Positions 1,181 to 64,000 of a stretch of DNA of 64,000 nt are shown here, in pieces. The position numbers were made by a program, and so were the translations under genes. The DNA comes from Candidatus Heimdallarchaeota archaeon (GTDB lineage Archaea; Asgardarchaeota; Heimdallarchaeia; JABLTI01). Under the pieces are notes generated by a model that had not been told where the DNA came from, did not search any database, and saw only the letters and a list, made by a program, of their open reading frames with translations. Location: positions 72,837-136,836 of the forward strand of contig JABCTZ010000006.1 of assembly GCA_018238155.1 (NCBI GenBank). The letters are read 5' to 3'. Position 1 is the first letter of the stretch. The number at the start of each line of letters is the position of its first letter.

Positions 1181-2179
1181 CTAGGAACCAAACCATACAT
1201 AACTTGAACAGTCACTTATTTGAGCATATTGAGCATCACCAACTGGGGATTGACAGCAACTGTAAGCAATAGAGAAACCTTCGGTACCTGTAGCATCCAA
1301 ATTTAATTGTGCAAAGAAGTAATGTGAAAACCTTCCTTCATAAGGTAATGGTTGGAAAAGATAAGAAAAAGCAGGTTTGTCTTCACGACTGCAGGATATA
1401 GCAAGATAAGGTGAAGCTGCAAAATCGTCCACCCAGTAACCTGAATAACATGATTCCACAACAATACATTTACGGGGAGCCTCTAATGCATCCATATAGT
1501 CTCGAAAATCATCTGAAGAGATTGTGGTTCCATCTTCTTTAAATTTTGTATGGGAGTGTTCATTATATGTACTTCCATGACCAAAGATATAAACAAATAC
1601 GGTGTCTTGATCATGTTCGTATGCATCTATAGTATTCATTGCACTTTGAACAGCTGCAACATTTGCGCAGTCTTCGTATTTATAGAATTTCGTATATCCA
1701 TGTTCTTCTTCTAGAATATCAATATAATCGTCAATATCTTGTTCCCGTCCTGCATCACTTGCCCAGAAGAAGACACCTATCTTTTCTGTTATTCCGACAA
1801 GTTCAAAATCATTTGTTCCTCCACCATAGACCGTTTCCATACCAGAATTGAAACGAGTTTTGGTTGCAGTCAAATAATAAGGTGCATTACCATTCAATGT
1901 GACACTAAATCCATAATCACCTGAACTGTCTGTTGTATCTATTCCTAGTATATTGAAATAGCAGTCAGCGAGCATTATTGTAGCACTACTTAATGGATTA
2001 TCAGAACAATCTTCTACTGTTCCCTCAAAGGTTGATACACCTTGTACACTCATTATTCTCATTGTTGAAAAAAGGAGAATGATGATAGCTAAGAAACTTA
2101 TTTTTTTTTCAAATATTTCATTATTAAATCTCCAATTCAAAAGTGTTGAAAGAAAATTCTTTAACAGAGCTATTACCAA
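1181..2179 (-). CDS. Secreted clan CD (caspase/legumain-like) cysteine peptidase with N-terminal carboxypeptidase-regulatory-like beta-sandwich
   Basis: Hydrophobic N-terminus; G.V.D...PL..A.I...TD.SG.Y domain; catalytic motifs VFVYIFGHGS and IVVESCYSG. Confidence 0.7.
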   Translation of the reverse strand: MVIALLKNFLSTLLNWRFNNEIFEKKISFLAIIILLFSTMRIMSVQGVSTFEGTVEDCSDNPLSSATIMLADCYFNILGIDTTDSSGDYGFSVTLNGNAPYYLTATKTRFNSGMETVYGGGTNDFELVGITEKIGVFFWASDAGREQDIDDYIDILEEEHGYTKFYKYEDCANVAAVQSAMNTIDAYEHDQDTVFVYIFGHGSTYNEHSHTKFKEDGTTISSDDFRDYMDALEAPRKCIVVESCYSGYWVDDFAASPYLAISCSREDKPAFSYLFQPLPYEGRFSHYFFAQLNLDATGTEGFSIAYSCCQSPVGDAQYAQISDCSSYVWFGS

Positions 2180-2312
2180 TGGTGTGTAATAAAGTTACCT
2201 ACATAGTATACGTTATCTTTTCTCTTTGTGAAATTTCCAGTAAGAATTCAAAAGCTTAAAGAATTGTGAGAAAAGGAATTTTTCACTCAAATTAAAACAT
2301 TGATTTACTACT

Positions 2313-2335
2313 AACCTGCGGCTGGATCACCTCCT
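2313..2335 (+). other. Orphan 3'-terminal fragment of archaeal 16S rRNA (h45 loop to anti-SD), possible att-site remnant
   Basis: aacctgcggctggatcacctcct matches the conserved archaeal 16S 3' end; no upstream 16S sequence; followed by hairpins (gattggcc...ggctaatc). Confidence 0.85.
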
Positions 2336-2413
2336 CTGAAATCGATTGGCCCTCAAGGCTAATCTCTGGTCCATGGAGGGAAATTTAACCCCTTTACATG
2401 TTTGACCTTAATT

Positions 2414-2480
2414 GTAGGGTTTGTTCAACCTCATGAAATCTTTTGTCATGCAAGAAAAAATATTTTTGTGCGAATCTTTA
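2414..2480 (+). repeat. attC-like repeat copy 1 (R' degenerate)
   Basis: GTTCAAC-ctcat-GAAATCTT...gtgcga-ATC. Confidence 0.55.
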
Positions 2481-2516
2481 TAGTTTATATCTAGCTCTTA
2501 TATAATAGGTGAATAT

Positions 2517-2711
2517 ATGAATTCAATTAACTTGAAAGTAGATGAACCAATAGTTATCCTTTCTTTGGCTGATTATGAAGCTTTAATAGAATCACTTGAA
2601 ATTTTAACTGAAGATTCCAAGATATTAGAAGAGATTACAAAAGCAAGAAAGGAGATTGTTACTGGTCAAGGCGTGCCTCTCAAGGAATTTCTCAAGGAAT
2701 TGAAGTCATGA
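2517..2711 (+). CDS. Phd/YefM-like antitoxin
   Basis: VILSLADYEALIESLEIL motif; stop overlaps start of the relE-like gene (ATGA). Confidence 0.75.
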   Translation: MNSINLKVDEPIVILSLADYEALIESLEILTEDSKILEEITKARKEIVTGQGVPLKEFLKELKS

Positions 2712-2965
2712 TCTATGATATAATATTGGCACCTCAACCACAAAAATTTCTTAAAAACATGAAAAATAAATGAATATTTCTTCAAATTGAAGTTGCTTTC
2801 ACAAGTATATCTTTAGATCCTAAAAAAGGCAAACAATTAGTAGGTGCTCTAAAGGGATTGTGGAGTTGGCGTGTAAGTTCTTATCGAATTTTATATGAAA
2901 TTCAAGAGCAGAAAGTAATTGTATATGTACTTCGTATTTCACATCGGAAAAAAGTCTATGAGTAA
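2708..2965 (+). pseudogene. RelE/ParE family toxin with in-frame TGA at 2771-2773
   Basis: MIYDIILAPQPQKFLKNMKNK*IFLQ...GKQLVGALKGLWSWRVSSYRILYEI...VYVLRISHRKKVYE. Confidence 0.8.
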
Positions 2966-2993: not shown

Positions 2994-3061
2994 GTAGGTT
3001 ATTGTACTCTTTGATTATCTTTTACCATTCAAGGAGCGAAATTTTATTGTGCGAGTTAGGT
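2994..3061 (+). repeat. attC-like repeat copy 2
   Basis: gtac-tcttt-gattatcttttacc...aaggagcgaa...attgtgcga-GTTAGGT. Confidence 0.55.
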
Positions 3062-3190
3062 TCGTTGTTTTTAGATAAAGTTTTAACCTTTTTTTAAGAA
3101 GTTTTTACTTTGCACGTGAGTTGATTTCTTATAAGTTGAAAGGTATTATTTAATAGTTTAACTTCTATATAGTATAAAAGAGGAATTCGT

Positions 3191-3442
3191 ATGAGTAAAT
3201 TTGAACGAATTGTCCGTGATCCTGAGATTTGTGGAGGACAACCAACCATAAAAGGCACTCGAGTTCTAGTTCTCGATATTCTTGATTGGGTTAAAGAAGG
3301 ACTATCTTTCGATGAAATTTTGGAGAGCTTCCCCAGTATTACTCGAGAGGATATCCAAGAAATAATTGCATATGCAAAGGATATGATTGCAGGTGAGGTT
3401 GTCATTTATGGTTCTAAGAAAAGCGAAGTTTCTATTGGATGA
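3191..3442 (+). CDS. DUF433 antitoxin
   Basis: RIVRDPEICGGQPTIKGTRV...EILESFPSITREDI. Confidence 0.9.
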   Translation: MSKFERIVRDPEICGGQPTIKGTRVLVLDILDWVKEGLSFDEILESFPSITREDIQEIIAYAKDMIAGEVVIYGSKKSEVSIG

Positions 3443-3767
3443 GAACATTCCTATAAAGCTTGAACAATTATTCACTTCTCTTGAGTTATCTTGTGTTTCA
3501 ATTCGGGATGTGAAGTGGTTTGGCATTAAAAATAGAAAATTATCTGAAAGAGTCAAAAAGAGCTCCTATATTCTAATTACTCGTGATAAAGATTTCACGT
3601 TTCTCTGGAACAAATATGAAGTCCAAGTTATTTATTTAGCTATTGACCCTCCACTTCTATCTTCTTTTCTTCAACCTCTTCAGAATTTACTTCTAAATTG
3701 GCACTATAACCTAGACAAACCTTTTCTTATAATTTTGACTAAGGATACAATTCGTTTAAGACAATGA
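3408..3767 (+). CDS. DUF5615/Mut7-C PIN-like toxin
   Basis: FLLDENIP...ILITRDKDF; ATG at 3408 follows aggtga RBS. Confidence 0.8.
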   Translation: MVLRKAKFLLDENIPIKLEQLFTSLELSCVSIRDVKWFGIKNRKLSERVKKSSYILITRDKDFTFLWNKYEVQVIYLAIDPPLLSSFLQPLQNLLLNWHYNLDKPFLIILTKDTIRLRQ

Positions 3768-3840
3768 TTTGTATTAACACTCTGAAATCTTTTACCAAGT
3801 AAGGAGCAAAAAAAGTATTATTGTGCGAGTTCGGTTAGAT
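3768..3840 (+). repeat. attC-like repeat copy 3
   Basis: attAAC-actct-GAAATCTTttaccaag...attattgtgcga-GTTCGGT. Confidence 0.6.
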
Positions 3841-3846
3841 AATCAT

Positions 3847-4212
3847 TTAATCTTTAGGTCTTATTCGAATTGCTTTGGTTGTAATAATAACTAATTTGCC
3901 TTGATATCTAGGTTCTTTTAAGTCTCTAAGCATAAGGCTTCTATGCAATAGTTGATTTGTTGCTTCAGGATGTGGTGATAGCACTTGCAGAATAATTGTT
4001 AATGGAGGTTTTTCTTTCGTGTTATGATATATTTCTCCGAATCTTCTATCATGTGTAATCAACGGAGTAGAATTTTCTGTTGCATAATCATATATTTCCT
4101 CATCAGTTATACTTGATTTCAAAATCTCATCAATTTCTAATACTATGAATTTATTTTTTCTCAAAATTTTCTTCGTTGATTCTGATAAGCATTCATCAAC
4201 AATTACTCTCAT
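3847..4212 (-). CDS. DUF5615 PIN-like toxin
   Basis: VIVDECLS...DEEIY..A......LITHDRRFG. Confidence 0.85.
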   Translation of the reverse strand: MRVIVDECLSESTKKILRKNKFIVLEIDEILKSSITDEEIYDYATENSTPLITHDRRFGEIYHNTKEKPPLTIILQVLSPHPEATNQLLHRSLMLRDLKEPRYQGKLVIITTKAIRIRPKD

Positions 4213-4227
4213 TGCCCCTCTCCTCTC

Positions 4228-4467
4228 TTACTCTACTATTGGGATAATTTCATCTTCTGGGTGATTAATGAGGTGAATTGAATATTCAAGTGTTGCTCGT
4301 ATATCCTCTTCTGTTAATTTTGGATATTCTTTGATTATCTGCTCAAAAGACGCTCCGTCTTTTAGCATCTGTAAGATAATGTAAATTGGTATTCTAGTAT
4401 TTCTAATGACAGGTTTGCCACCTAGAATCTTGGGGTTTACTTCTATACGATTTATTATTGGATTCAT
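4228..4467 (-). CDS. DUF433 antitoxin
   Basis: RIEVNPKILGGKPVIRNTRI...EYPKLTEEDI. Confidence 0.9.
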   Translation of the reverse strand: MNPIINRIEVNPKILGGKPVIRNTRIPIYIILQMLKDGASFEQIIKEYPKLTEEDIRATLEYSIHLINHPEDEIIPIVE

Positions 4468-4538: not shown

Positions 4539-4615
4539 TAGGAATTTGTTTACACAAAACATCTTGAAATCTTTTACCAAGCAAGAAGTGAAAAATAGTT
4601 TTGTACGAGTTAGGT
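4539..4615 (+). repeat. attC-like repeat copy 4
   Basis: aaAAC-atctt-GAAATCTTttaccaagcaag...gtacga-GTTAGGT. Confidence 0.6.
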
Positions 4616-4756
4616 TGTTCTACTTTTATTTGACTCTAATTTTTTTGATTTAGATTTTAAAAAGAATGAAACAAGAAATAAGAATTTCAAAATATCTTAA
4701 GATAGTGGATTTTACATTAAAAAAACCGTTTTGGTAACTAATTTTCTGTATTGTTT

Positions 4757-5014
4757 TTACTGAAGCATTTCGATGAGTTTATCTTTCGAGATATTGTTCC
4801 AAATTGCTACCTTCGTTAAAATATCGTTTAGAGTTCCTTTTGCAATCTCTTTATGTGTAACAATAGTAATATGATGTTCTCCTGCTTCCCCTTTCTTTGT
4901 TAGTCTTATATGACTTCCTTTTTGTCTTACTACCCGATAATCTAGTTTATTCAGTAGCTTTAGTAGTTTCTTTCCACTAACTACTGGAAGCTTTGGCAAT
5001 TGCTTGCACCTCAA
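4757..5014 (-). CDS. hicA: HicA family mRNA interferase toxin
   Basis: LPVVSGKKL...VVRQKGSHIRL...H.EIAKGTL. Confidence 0.9.
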   Translation of the reverse strand: MRCKQLPKLPVVSGKKLLKLLNKLDYRVVRQKGSHIRLTKKGEAGEHHITIVTHKEIAKGTLNDILTKVAIWNNISKDKLIEMLQ

Positions 5015-5213
5015 ATTCAGACAAAGTTAAAATTCTTATCGTTTCTGTTTGCAATTCTTCCTCAAAGTGCACCTCAACGGCTTCTTCAATATTCTTTCGT
5101 AATTCATCTAAGGTTTTCCCTTGAGTAAAAATATCTGCATCCATTCCTCTTGCACACCAATTTCCCTCTTCATCTTGATATATTTCTAATTTTATTAGAC
5201 GCATTAATTTCAC
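4977..5213 (-). CDS. hicB: HicB-like antitoxin
   Basis: QDEEG.WCA......FTQGKTLDELRKNIEEAV; overlaps hicA. Confidence 0.8.
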   Translation of the reverse strand: MKLMRLIKLEIYQDEEGNWCARGMDADIFTQGKTLDELRKNIEEAVEVHFEEELQTETIRILTLSEFEVQAIAKASSS

Positions 5214-5301
5214 CTAATTATATCTTCTTTTTCTTTAATTATAAACTCATTTATTATTGATTATATTTAAAACTCATTCTCTTTTCATGTTCGATCTAAA
5301 A

Positions 5302-5371
5302 GTAGGATTTGTTTAACCTCATGAAATCTTTTACCAAGCAAGGAGCGAATAAATTATTGTGCTAGTTAGGT
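5302..5371 (+). repeat. attC-like repeat copy 5 (best conserved)
   Basis: GTTTAAC(5311)-ctcat-GAAATCTT...aattatt-gtgcta-GTTAGGT(5371): RYYYAAC and GTTRRRY cores, 61 bp. Confidence 0.65.
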
Positions 5372-5419
5372 CAGTTGTTATTATTTTTACTATTTTTCGT
5401 TTATCTTAATTGTAAATGG

Positions 5420-6700
5420 TCACTCAGATTTTTTCAGTTGTTTTTTTGTTCTTATCCTAATAGCAGCAATTACTTTTAGGACAATAACAATTAGAATGAT
5501 AGAAATAACCGCTATTACTGATACAATTGTAATTATCATTTTAGTTTCAAAGGTTAGAGGAATTACCATTGGAAATAATCTTTTAATTCTCTCAGGATTT
5601 GTAACATCATAGATAAAAAGGAACCAAGAATAATAAAAAGTCGTAGCAATCCAATCTTCCGTAATTATTATACAAATGTTGTTTATCATGACTATTTTTT
5701 TATACTCTAACTTCAAACGGTCTTCCATTGAATGTTTATCGAGTTCAATAATATGTTCAAGATTTGTTTTATCTAATGTTAGTATTTCCCTTTCAGTTAC
5801 TAGATAAACAATATTTTCAGATACATGAGCTGATTTTGCATTTTCTAATGTATAATTAGCTATACAATTCAATCTATTATCATTTAGTATTTCATAAATC
5901 TTCAATCCCATATTATCGCAAGCATTTAGCTGATCATCCGACAATGAAATGCTGTTTAGATTGTCGAATTCATATTCAACTACAAAATCTAATTGAAGAG
6001 CACTATTTACTTCATAGATAGCTAAATTTTGCTCTCCGGTTATTACGAAAACTCTTTCCTCATCCATTATTACATCATTAAAGGAAAAGTTTCTCGTTGT
6101 ATTACCAATTAAGTTCCAGTTGTTAAAATCTGTTAAATCATATGTGAGCATTAATTTACTTCCATAATCGTTAGAACCAAAAATGAATAATTCATCATTG
6201 ATTATAATCAATTTTAGTATTTCCAAATCTATTGTTGTAAGTATATTCACCAATGTAGCGTTTATTTCACAATTAACTATCCCAATGAAATTATCATAGT
6301 GTCTTGCACTGAATAATATCTTATCATTGTATCTTGTTATATACCGTGCTAAACTGAGATTTGCATTTTTTTCTTGATAGATTACTTGCGCTTTCGCTGG
6401 TCTACTTATATCGATTATCTGAAAACCTGCTGAGCTTGTTGAATAGATTAAATCTTCATATACTACAAAATCAAAACTACAATGCATCACTGTATTGATC
6501 GTATAAAATTTGTCGATACAGACTTTCTTATTGATTGATGTATTTCCACTAATATATTGTGGATTTTTGATGTTATTATAGTCTATGGACGTTCCAATGA
6601 TAACTGTAATGATCATTGAAATTCGTACTAATTTAAAAAAATCGTTTCCTCTCATAATGCATCCCGCTTTTCCATTCTCTTGTATTTCTTTCCTTTTCAA
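5420..6700 (-). CDS. LVIVD-repeat-like beta-propeller surface protein with C-terminal TM and basic tail
   Basis: FQIIDISRP, LTYDLTD, FIYDVTNP repeats; N- and C-terminal hydrophobic segments; true start probably a later Met. Confidence 0.65.
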   Translation of the reverse strand: MKRKEIQENGKAGCIMRGNDFFKLVRISMIITVIIGTSIDYNNIKNPQYISGNTSINKKVCIDKFYTINTVMHCSFDFVVYEDLIYSTSSAGFQIIDISRPAKAQVIYQEKNANLSLARYITRYNDKILFSARHYDNFIGIVNCEINATLVNILTTIDLEILKLIIINDELFIFGSNDYGSKLMLTYDLTDFNNWNLIGNTTRNFSFNDVIMDEERVFVITGEQNLAIYEVNSALQLDFVVEYEFDNLNSISLSDDQLNACDNMGLKIYEILNDNRLNCIANYTLENAKSAHVSENIVYLVTEREILTLDKTNLEHIIELDKHSMEDRLKLEYKKIVMINNICIIITEDWIATTFYYSWFLFIYDVTNPERIKRLFPMVIPLTFETKMIITIVSVIAVISIILIVIVLKVIAAIRIRTKKQLKKSE

Positions 6701-6726
6701 ATTGATAAAATTTTTTGTAATGAGCG

Positions 6727-6740
6727 TGTGCGAGTTAGAT
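6727..6740 (+). repeat. Half copy of attC-like repeat (R' side only)
   Basis: tgtgcga-GTTAGAT. Confidence 0.45.
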
Positions 6741-6752
6741 TAGTTCATTTTT

Positions 6753-8068
6753 TTATTCTTCTTTATATTTCAATTCAGGTTTATTTTTCAGTTTTATTTT
6801 TTTAGATTTCTTCAACTTCCTCACAGAAAAGATAGACATAATTATAACAATAATCAAAATAAATGGACTTGCAATACCCATTATTGGAAGAATTAAATAG
6901 TGAAATATGAGTGGTAATTTTATTATTGGAAATTGTAGTTTAATTCTATTCTTATTTTCTATATCAAAGATAAAAAGATCGGTTTGTGTGTCAGGGGCAC
7001 CTGTCATGTAATCCTCTGTCATAACTAAAACATAGTTTTTGTACAAGAAAATTTTCTTAAAATCTAGTTCTACTATATCCTTTAGCCTATATTTACTTCT
7101 GCATTTAATTTCATCATTTTCTACTTCTAAAAGTACTAAATTCTTTGAGTTTATGATGCAAATAATATCATCCTTAACAGCAATTGACTTTGGTTGAGCT
7201 ATATCATAACTTGCAATTTTTTCCGGATTATAAGGATCGTCATTATTGAACACTTGAATTTGGTTACTTTTTAATGCATACAGAAAGTTATCCTGAAAAC
7301 TTATTCTGGTATATTCTTCTTCAAATTCTTTTACTTTTACTGGTGCACTTACATTGCTGAAATCGTAGACCAACAATTTGTTGTCAATAGTACTATGATA
7401 TAGAAAATTATTATGGAATTTATAATCTAGGATATCATCATATTTATAATACGGTGGATATTGATTCCCAATCACAATTTCTGAAATATTGTGACAACCA
7501 ATTAAGATTGGATTATAGATATCACTAATATTGTATATTTCACATTGAGGGACTTCATATCTTGAACCAAACAAAAAGAGATTGTTCTTTTTTTGCTCTA
7601 AACGGTGAACAAAGCTTAAATTTGTACCAATTATTTTATTAAAGTATTGATCTTTTCATTTTCAATAAATCCAATTACACTTTGATTAACATTATAATTT
7701 CCATCCATTGCCATGAACGTAATACTGCCATTATTGTAAAATGAGAAAATATATTCATAATCAAAATATCTTACCCATTTTAATTCTTTCCATCTTTGTA
7801 ATTGGGAGATATTTCTTACAAATATTGAACTTGATGAGAAGCTAACGAGAACTAAATCATTTACGCATGTAATATCATTGCACATCTTTAACATATGATT
7901 AATACTCAGTGGATTATTATTGAAATAATTTAAACTTTCAGTTTTAGCATTGTTTTTCTCAGTATTCATATTTGAGTAATGATTCCGTAAATCATTCATT
8001 TGAACTAAAATTATGATTATAAAAAAAAAGGTATAAATAATCCTCTTCCTACAATTCTTTAATCCCAT
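6753..8068 (-). pseudogene. Frameshifted LVIVD-repeat-like surface protein (ORFs 7631-8068 and 6753-7574)
   Basis: The 6753 frame stays open upstream to about 7640 (KIIGTNLSFVHRLEQKKNNLFLFG); adding one base in the A-run near 7635 would join the halves; paralog of 5420-6700. Confidence 0.7.
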
Positions 8069-8128
8069 TTTTCCACTCTCTTGTATTTATTTACTCTTCA
8101 AATTAATAAAATTTCTTGTAATAAGAAT

Positions 8129-8142
8129 ATGCGAGTTAGGTT
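8129..8142 (+). repeat. Half copy of attC-like repeat (R' side only)
   Basis: tatgcga-GTTAGGT. Confidence 0.45.
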
Positions 8143-8370
8143 TGTTTTTTTCTTTTTTTGTTTTTCGTTCGAGTTTTCCTATTATTTTCAACCCAAGAAC
8201 TATACTTAATATTATTATGATAAAAATAATCCTCGATTTTTATTGTTTATTTCAATCAAAAAGAGCATGCCAAATTATTATTAAAGATAGAAAGATATTC
8301 TTCATTGGGATTTATACTAGGTTTATTATCTTAGATTTTGAATTCACAAGAAATTTCCAGGTGAAAAAGT

Positions 8371-60929: not shown

Positions 60930-61204
60930 TGAATAATTCAGTAAACGAATCCGCGAGAAATGCGCAACAACAGCAATTGTTGAGCGGATCAACGCGCATA
61001 TTTACGATAATTGATTAAATTATTGATGCGCTTGGCGAGACAGTGAAGCTCGCTGAGTAAGAGGTAAAAAATGTGACCACCGGCGCATCGGTATGGGAAT
61101 AATGAAGAATCATTGCTCTCAAATCGAACGCTAAATAAGACGTCCTTTTTTACCGTAGATGGTCTCACTTCTTCAAGTGAAATCTAGATCTCCATAGTAG
61201 GTTC

Positions 61205-64000
<2,796 letters not shown>

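Follow-up and report, generated by a model that had tools for sequence, protein, structure and literature searches.

The isolated 16S rRNA 3′ end studied here belongs to a direct duplication: the 3′ flank of a single 16S gene occurs twice in the same orientation, two genes of atypical composition lie between the copies, and an array of small gene cassettes, bounded by further partial copies, follows the second one. No integrase was found in cis, and the same layout recurs with different cargo in other Asgard genomes. The best reading, to which we give a probability of about one in two, is a homology-anchored (Campbell-type) insertion of foreign DNA that carried its own 16S flank. The window, i.e. 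the whole 64,000-nt stretch that was analysed, corresponds to positions 72837–136836 of contig C1 in a 4.08-Mb, 46-contig metagenome-assembled genome (MAG; hereafter G000) of roughly 33% GC, 90.7% complete and 5.9% contaminated.

An earlier note, made from the letters of the window, had proposed that an element may have integrated at the 16S 3′ end and had advised looking further left for an intact, co-oriented 16S gene with the same 3′ end. Such a gene is present at C1:70404–71894, on the same strand as the spare copy (archaeal 16S, 1391 bits, model positions 1–1478); no other 16S match was found in the assembly. It ends 943 nt to the left of the window start and 3,254 nt before the spare copy. 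Rfam models found no SSU rRNA in the window, only an archaeal 23S rRNA that runs from position 61201 to the end of the window, where the contig ends as well; a tRNA search of the window found none. The order of the locus is: intact 16S gene, its trailer (T1) with a first copy of the array repeat (R0), two minus-strand genes, and then the co-oriented flank copy T2 with repeat R1. The features of the insert and of the spare flank are as follows.

1–982, continuing left to C1:72232, minus strand: gene for an SBBP beta-propeller repeat protein of 528 aa (PF06739, E 3.7e-22)
1181–2179, minus strand: gene for a C13 (legumain/caspase-like) peptidase of 332 aa with a CarboxypepD_reg-like domain (PF01650, E 5.2e-07)
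2313–2335, plus strand: spare 16S 3′ end, 23 nt (exact match to the native 16S end)
2336–2418, plus strand: spare proximal trailer with two hairpins, 2344–2364 and 2368–2407 (alignment to the native trailer)
2419–2491, plus strand: R1, predicted 3′ arm of the 16S processing stem (nhmmer E 2e-11; pairs with the leader)

Positions 2313–2335 read AACCTGCGGCTGGATCACCTCCT, identical to the last 23 nt of the genome's own 16S gene, starting at the AA of the helix-45 (h45) GGAA loop and extending through the anti-SD to the 16S terminus. This 23-mer matches the window once at up to three mismatches and never in 100 shuffles, with no match expected by chance, so that the 16S tail recognized in the earlier note is real. 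The note was right that 23 nt of 16S are present, but the copy as a whole is far longer. Alignment of the native flank with window positions 2285–2540 gives a 149–152-nt direct repeat of 16S end and trailer at 85% identity, the first 37 nt being identical. The homology runs from 2313 to about 2461, of which roughly 125 nt are trailer, and stops sharply at 2312/2313, to the left of which no 16S similarity was seen even with permissive scoring. Together with R1 the spare copy, at 2313–2491, is the longest version of the repeat in the array. What the note had called trailer-like hairpins are genuine trailer hairpins related by alignment to those of the native gene, and the changes between them preserve structure: the first hairpin differs from its native counterpart by one double compensatory change (T–A to C–G) and two wobble changes.

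The two flank copies can also be compared for their fit to the host. T1 pairs with the 16S leader more stably than T2 in the proximal stem (ddG −18.9 versus −14.2 kcal/mol), and its arm pairs at 13 of 13 positions, whereas that of T2 has one U–U mismatch; the distal arms pair equally well. A comparison of the Heimdallarchaeum sister species, made to recognize the resident copy, gave nearly equal identities of 125/135 versus 121/135. If decay were spread evenly at 15%, the first 37 nt would remain identical with a probability of about 0.002 (0.85^37). T1 and T2 both look like flanks selected as parts of real 16S genes rather than decayed duplicates of each other. The 37 identical nucleotides, set against an overall identity of 85%, and the hairpin differences that keep pairing suggest that one of the copies probably comes from the functional 16S flank of another lineage.

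The 3.1-kb block between the copies, here called cassette 0, consists of the SBBP gene on the left and the C13 peptidase gene on the right, the same pair that the earlier note had thought might belong to an inserted element. Its composition is atypical: the GC content is 37.8%, compared with a genome mean of 32.8% (sd 2.3), which places it in the top 2.1% of 3-kb windows, and the remaining array has 29%. A homologue of the peptidase with 55% identity lies within the array of a congener (G004). Since the DNA behind the spare copy is unrelated to that behind the native copy, the locus is not a simple tandem duplication. The integrase that the note had advised looking for to the left was not found by Pfam searches either upstream of the insert or within it, the SBBP and C13 genes being the only ones that the insert contains, and no serine recombinase was found in or beside it.

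The repeat that follows the spare copy was described in the earlier note as attC-like. A repeat of about 70 nt does recur, in one orientation, at 2417–2491, 2998–3072, 3774–3843, 4556–4627 and 5306–5382, with half copies at about 6723–6752 and 8124–8153; with R0, directly behind the native trailer, there are eight co-oriented copies in all. The repeats were tried as attC sites and rejected, because in nine strand folds, covering seven repeat copies, neither strand was more stable than its shuffles (z −0.66 to +1.63), and R″/R′ pairing is absent from every MFE structure of the tested repeats. Their reverse complement instead matches the 16S leader. In cofolding, the leader sequence TTAAAAGA-CATG-TAA-AGGTTGTACAAAC pairs with the trailer sequence GTTTGTATAACCT-CATG-AAA-TCTTTTAAC as a canonical 3-4-3 bulge-helix-bulge (BHB), and the leader forms the same structure with T1 and with T2: CATG/CATG, TAA and AAA bulges, and helices of 13 bp and 8 bp. 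The BHB lies about 100 nt past the mature 16S 3′ end and 156 nt ahead of the 5′ end. Past the BHB half come a distal helix (GCGAGTT... against leader ...AACTCGC) and a terminal T-tract. Leader complementarity, the BHB cofold and the end at the T-tract thus identify the repeat, on these structural models, as the predicted 3′ arm of the pre-16S processing stem together with the end of the transcription unit. So the repeat noticed in the first reading is real and recurrent, but it is a processing-stem arm and not an attC site.

R1, whose leader partner is at C1:70240–70272, is made up of the helix GTTTGTTCAACCT (2419–2431), CATG (2432–2435), the AAA bulge (2436–2438), the helix TCTTTT (2439–2444) and a degenerate distal arm. 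In R5 the BHB half is intact, and some 25 nt of trailer remain to its left. For the congener G005, too, there is a weak match (E 0.01) between the leader and the complement of the repeat model. A processing stem with a BHB motif is well known from archaeal pre-rRNA (PMC7038931, PMC8339473), and the native copy and leader conform to it in forming the canonical helix and the 3-4-3 BHB; the present locus differs in having the 3′ arm in eight copies and the leader arm in one, the extra arms being without a described role.

The repeats delimit a cassette array just downstream of the rRNA locus, as the first reading of the window had suggested. Each interval between repeats holds one module, and the repeats are co-oriented whatever the orientation of the genes:

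2517–2965, plus strand: cassette 1, small antitoxin-like ORF (2517–2711) and ParE/RelE-type toxin (2708–2965; PF05016, E 3.5e-10 for 2774–2962)
2998–3072, plus strand: R2, CATG lost
3191–3767, plus strand: cassette 2, DUF433 and DUF5615 (PIN-like) toxin-antitoxin pair (PF04255, E 2.2e-24; PF18480, E 3.4e-12)
3774–3843, plus strand: R3
3847–4467, minus strand: cassette 3, DUF5615 and DUF433 pair on the opposite strand
4556–4627, plus strand: R4
4757–5213, minus strand: cassette 4, HicA/HicB pair (PF07927, E 2.2e-13)
5281–5382, plus strand: R5, intact BHB half, left boundary at +58 of the flank
5420–8068, minus strand: cassettes 5 and 6, split by R6, with ORFs of 426, 273 and 145 aa, the 273-aa one giving a weak beta-propeller match
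About 6723–6752: half-repeat R6, between cassettes 5 and 6
8124–8153, plus strand: half-repeat R7, end of the array

The 426-aa ORF occupies one of the last two intervals and the 273-aa and 145-aa ORFs the next. Beyond R7 come genes for an MFS transporter, a zinc alcohol dehydrogenase (ADH) and a CoA-enzyme activase. The antitoxin-like part of cassette 1 gives a weak Phd match (E 0.021). Its toxin gene has an in-frame TGA at 2771–2773, and the part after this stop still matches PF05016 at the E-value given above.

By the textbook account, prokaryotes accumulate accessory genes at a single site in two ways, as gene islands lined up behind tRNA genes or as integron arrays, and the present array invites comparison with both. 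In an integron-like system, a site-specific recombinase acting in trans would exchange cassettes at the processing-arm repeat, and the 16S end and proximal trailer would be passengers that were joined to cassette 0 when it first formed. The eight co-oriented repeats, one per module boundary, the cargo rich in toxin-antitoxin genes and the many copies that begin exactly at the arm (+83 to +86 from the 16S 3′ end) are what such a system would leave behind. So is the spare copy of the congener G010 (L025:4956–5097, G010:C25), in which a 36-nt arm core is identical to the native arm and the flanks have decayed to about 70–80%. (In the 16S-derived part of that copy, at about 69% identity, the changes are mostly to A or T.) Two PF00589 matches exist in G000, both on other contigs (C8 and C19), and the one on C8 could serve as the enzyme acting in trans: it is an XerA-like tyrosine recombinase with an insertion of about 75 aa. 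In addition, integrons and integrase-less attC clusters (CALINs) are reported to be enriched in Asgard archaea (Ghaly et al., 2022; PMC9668308).

Several observations nevertheless make the integron-like scheme unlikely. The repeats do not fold as attC hairpins, and beside the array there is neither an IntI gene nor an attI site, the position upstream being taken by the 16S gene. The conserved core varies between species and between copies, R2–R4 lacking the CATG helix. Moreover, the repeat family is essentially confined to the 16S locus, with two solitary copies elsewhere (C4:44659–44718 and C26:45800–45868). Compared with sedentary chromosomal integrons and CALINs, archaeal ones included (Ghaly et al., 2022; PMC9668308), the array is similar in its small, toxin-antitoxin-rich and often single-module cassettes, in its one co-oriented repeat per boundary and in a content that varies between relatives. 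It differs in that the repeats are homologues of an rRNA trailer, conserved in sequence rather than in structure, in the lack of attC hairpins, IntI and attI, and in the mixed orientation of its genes. Regarding the recombinases themselves, the C8 protein is 351 aa long (L003:925–1980), with the extra residues counted against the XerA profile, and scores 121 bits against a family cut-off of 220, far below the XerA and IntI cut-offs. The other PF00589 protein of G000 has 524 aa.

The layout is not restricted to G000. Five congeners (G004, G005, G006, G008 and G010) carry co-oriented arrays of the same repeat; those of G005 and G010 adjoin the 16S gene, the ADH gene next to the G000 array also flanks those of G005 and G008, and those of G004 and G006 are on short contigs. 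The shared zinc-ADH gene to the right of the arrays of G000, G005 and G008 indicates that the locus is orthologous. The cargo differs between congeners, with some cassettes in common: DUF433/DUF5615 cassettes occur in G000, G010 and G004, and the HicAB cassettes of G000 and G005 share 83–91% amino-acid identity. The flank copy that follows HicAB is long and decayed in G005, with its left end at −14, and shortened in G000 (+58), which shows that the copies are trimmed with age.

Similar arrangements were found in more distant genomes. In the closed, long-read genome of Candidatus Heimdallarchaeum aukensis (G016; 3,081,793 bp), a 134-nt repeat with 95.5% identity, starting at −21, brackets a 6.5-kb block of three ORFs and a gene for an 1171-aa LRR protein; the spare copy is followed by a LAGLIDADG gene and then by tRNA-Arg(TCT). 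At the same place, the sister genome G026 has a single flank copy followed by unrelated DNA and lacks the G016 insert; trailer-only copies occur 38 and 40.7 kb downstream in G026. In G012, a 347-nt repeat (97.4%, left end −146) surrounds 14.2 kb carrying SIR2-STAND and HEPN genes, and in G121, which belongs to another class, a 122-nt repeat (89%, left end −39) surrounds 4.7 kb carrying a histone-fold gene. No protein is common to the inserts of the G000-genus arrays, G016 and G121. Besides a SIR2-STAND-TPR protein and a HEPN protein, the 14-kb block of G012 (L113:1188–4430, G012:C23) codes for a protein of 1625 aa without a Pfam match, and its content resembles that of a defence island. At the 3′ foot of h45, between CCTGCGG and TGGATCACC, the 16S gene of this genome also carries 32 additional nucleotides that form a hairpin; this insertion, which may be an expansion segment or a mini-intron, is shared by the native and the spare copy (L110, G012:C23:18100–18700; L109, G012:C23:3600–4200).

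An exact 20-mer search of 332 genomes of the phylum found the sequence twice on one contig, or without an assembled intact 16S gene, only in G000, G004, G016 and G121; the other double matches were second rRNA operons or lay at contig ends. Among IMG/VR viral contigs none carried the arm core, and the sole match to the junction of 16S end and trailer was discarded as an unrelated GC-rich ribosome-binding site. A scan of metagenomes for an empty site or a variant strain returned only a chance match in unrelated DNA.

This recurrence bears on the more trivial explanations, an assembly artefact or an in-situ segmental duplication of the 16S flank in which mobile DNA took no part. The genome is a MAG of the completeness and contamination given above, and the contigs of relatives often break in this repeat. 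Yet a k-mer misjoin at the shared 37 nt would place 16S sequence, and not unrelated AT-rich DNA, to the left of position 2313, and the layout recurs in independent assemblies, among them the closed genome of Ca. H. aukensis, with an empty site in its sister species. A duplication in situ is further at odds with cargo that differs between species at an orthologous locus and with the unrelated DNA behind the two copies. We therefore regard both as very improbable.

Integration of mobile elements between the only 16S gene and tRNA-Arg has previously been described in Heimdallarchaeum by Wu et al. (2022; PMC8813620), who attributed the targeting to a homologue of homing endonucleases. The G016 insert corresponds to their CRISPR-targeted element HeimM2, and the G026 trailer copies are those of the HeimV2 host. 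The main text of that paper does not mention direct repeats around HeimM2 or HeimV2; as found here, the LRR block of HeimM2 is also bracketed, by the 134-nt repeat that begins 21 nt before the 16S end. The G000 locus resembles these cases in the placement of mobile DNA immediately after the sole 16S gene in an archaeon of the Heimdall group, and it differs in family and cargo, in the lack of a homing-endonuclease gene on the contig and in its multi-cassette array. Our search of the literature found no description of arrays bounded by copies of a 16S tail and a processing arm, only the passage on HeimM2 and HeimV2. Integration beside the single 16S gene of Heimdallarchaeum was thus already known (PMC8813620), and what is described here would be an accretion of foreign DNA behind a structural-RNA gene that led to an integron-like result.

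The ends of the flank copies provide further clues to the mechanism. On the right, every copy stops where the conserved flank stops. The left ends, counted relative to the 16S 3′ end, are the following:

−146: G012
−51 or further left: G010
−39: G121
−25: G004
−23: G000 (the spare copy in the window)
−21: G016
−16: G010
−15 and −14: G005
−5: G004
+17 to +103: numerous copies, clustering at +83 to +86, the start of the arm

Three of about ten long copies (−25, −23 and −21) start in the 4-nt loop of h45, three (−16, −15 and −14) at its 3′ foot, and four elsewhere. The h45 loop is over-represented among the left ends without being a rule, and the clustering, a post-hoc pattern, is suggestive of hairpin-related breakage. 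The earlier note had suggested h45 as a possible integration site. In its strict form, this explanation invokes a site-specific recombinase that would cross over in the symmetric h45 stem-loop and displace the resident 3′ fragment to the far end, the element supplying a new 16S end and trailer by analogy with tRNA-targeting integrases, which use the anticodon or T loop. It is favoured by left ends that fall within or beside the GGAA loop in three lineages from two families, and by the arms of h45, an 8-bp imperfect inverted repeat with a spacer of 4 nt. Moreover, an element integrating in this way would have to carry the whole trailer and BHB arm needed for 16S maturation, which is what is duplicated.

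A fixed crossover in h45 is not established, given that the left ends spread from −146 to +103 and only three long copies start in the loop, other long copies starting at −146, −51 or beyond, −39, −16 to −14 and −5. By Pfam, no recombinase was found in the inserts of G000, G016, G121 and G012, nor an integrase beside them, and T1, which would be the imported copy under this model, fits the host leader better in the proximal stem. The closed genome of Ca. H. aukensis, 3.08 Mb in size, has no PF00589 match at E ≤ 0.01, not even XerA. A recombinase of this kind thus seems rather unlikely. Of the element-integration model in the earlier note, the 16S gene, the related trailer, the bracketed genes and the array were borne out, and the integrase, the h45 crossover and the attC sites were not. 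Williams is said to have set out, in 2002, sublocation rules for integrative elements at the 3′ ends of tRNA and tmRNA genes. Such elements and their tandem islands resemble the present locus in that the insert lies between direct repeats of a structural-RNA gene's 3′ part and the gene stays intact, and in that serial events give queues whose members are separated by partial copies of the gene, the most recent member adjoining it. They differ in their target, which here is the 16S 3′ end with its processing-stem arm; here, moreover, the inserts examined contain no integrase, and the left end of the repeat is not fixed.

The same left ends could be explained by a nuclease. A homing-type enzyme, either LAGLIDADG or RNA-guided and TnpB-like, would cut the 16S 3′ region, and repair would copy or join foreign DNA, the flank copy starting at the cut. 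LAGLIDADG enzymes are expected to leave a 4-nt overhang, and the spread from −25 through −23 to −21 would equal it. A free-standing LAGLIDADG gene lies immediately to the right of the spare copy in Ca. H. aukensis, the only genome in which an endonuclease gene was found beside the spare copy, and Wu et al. (2022; PMC8813620) proposed that a LAGLIDADG protein was co-opted for integration. However, the G000 contig with the array carries neither a LAGLIDADG nor a TnpB gene. The LAGLIDADG matches of G000 are mostly intein-like, inside large ORFs, with one free-standing 150-aa ORF on another contig, and its TnpB-like genes are also on other contigs. Elsewhere in the genome nothing guide-like matches the 16S end or trailer over 15 nt or more, and the putative target is still intact in the native 16S gene. 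Capture triggered by a nuclease is, in our estimation, quite improbable.

We now return to the homology-anchored insertion of foreign DNA. The entire 3′ flank of the single 16S gene, from the final 23 nt of 16S through the trailer and the processing-stem 3′ arm with its BHB half to the T-tract, is directly duplicated, and the spare copy is the right-hand member of the pair. The duplication would have arisen when the SBBP and C13 block was inserted behind the gene. From the layout we infer that incoming DNA with its own copy of the flank recombined with the resident flank inside their shared conserved sequence, presumably catalysed by host or trans-acting enzymes. Between diverged lineages, the longest identical tract would be that of the universally conserved 16S terminus. 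A Campbell-type exchange within the shared flank would keep an intact 16S gene and a working processing arm, and would leave a second flank copy on the far side of the cargo. Repeated events, with decay and left-side truncation of the older copies, could then have built the cassette array. Left ends that vary and a right end that is fixed are as shared homology predicts, rather than one crossover site.

Some points count against this homology-anchored reading. Homologous recombination on tracts of 23–150 nt at 75–95% identity is inefficient, and neither a circular nor a linear intermediate was seen. The starts in the loop and at the foot of h45 hint at structure- or site-specific cutting and not at the random ends of homology, the identical 36-nt core of the G010 copy fits a protected recombination core or gene conversion, and the small single-module toxin-antitoxin cassettes look more like substrates of a site-specific system. 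A retrocopy origin, with 5′-truncated copies of the primary transcript halting at the dimethylated A's of h45, was also considered; it would fit the fixed right end at the T-tract. It was rejected: the G000 genome has no reverse transcriptase (RVT_1) gene, the boundaries include loop A's or G's, and the copy at each cassette joint would be left unexplained.

The anchor of this array is the tail of the only 16S gene together with the RNA-processing arm that this gene needs, with no integrase in sight, and its hosts belong to the archaeal group with the closest relationship to eukaryotes. A mechanism guided by homology or triggered by a nuclease would constitute a third route to a cassette platform, and it would explain why toxin-antitoxin, defence and surface-protein genes gather behind Asgard 16S genes. 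It is tempting to go further and imagine an integrase-independent gene-capture platform of Asgard archaea on the 3′ flank of the single 16S gene, although this broader view is doubtful at present. Breaks at the loop and feet of the h45 hairpin, or pairing within the conserved flank, would admit foreign DNA with its own 16S tail, and surplus BHB arms would accumulate as cassette boundaries, perhaps being used in RNA through alternative leader pairing, splicing and circularization of read-through pre-rRNA. On the practical side, assemblies that break at the flank repeat cause 16S genes to drop out of Asgard MAGs, spare 16S 3′ ends can mislead rRNA annotation, and spare BHB arms predict alternative circular junctions in RNA sequencing.

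The solitary arm copies on C4 and C26 are far from any rRNA gene, and no partner arm or RNA gene was found near them; the position of the C4 copy is conserved in another Heimdall-group MAG (JAUWKS010000034.1). In G000, the 16S gene and the 23S gene (window positions 61201–64000) are on the same strand, about 59 kb apart and separated by ordinary metabolic genes, and the contig ends inside the 23S gene.
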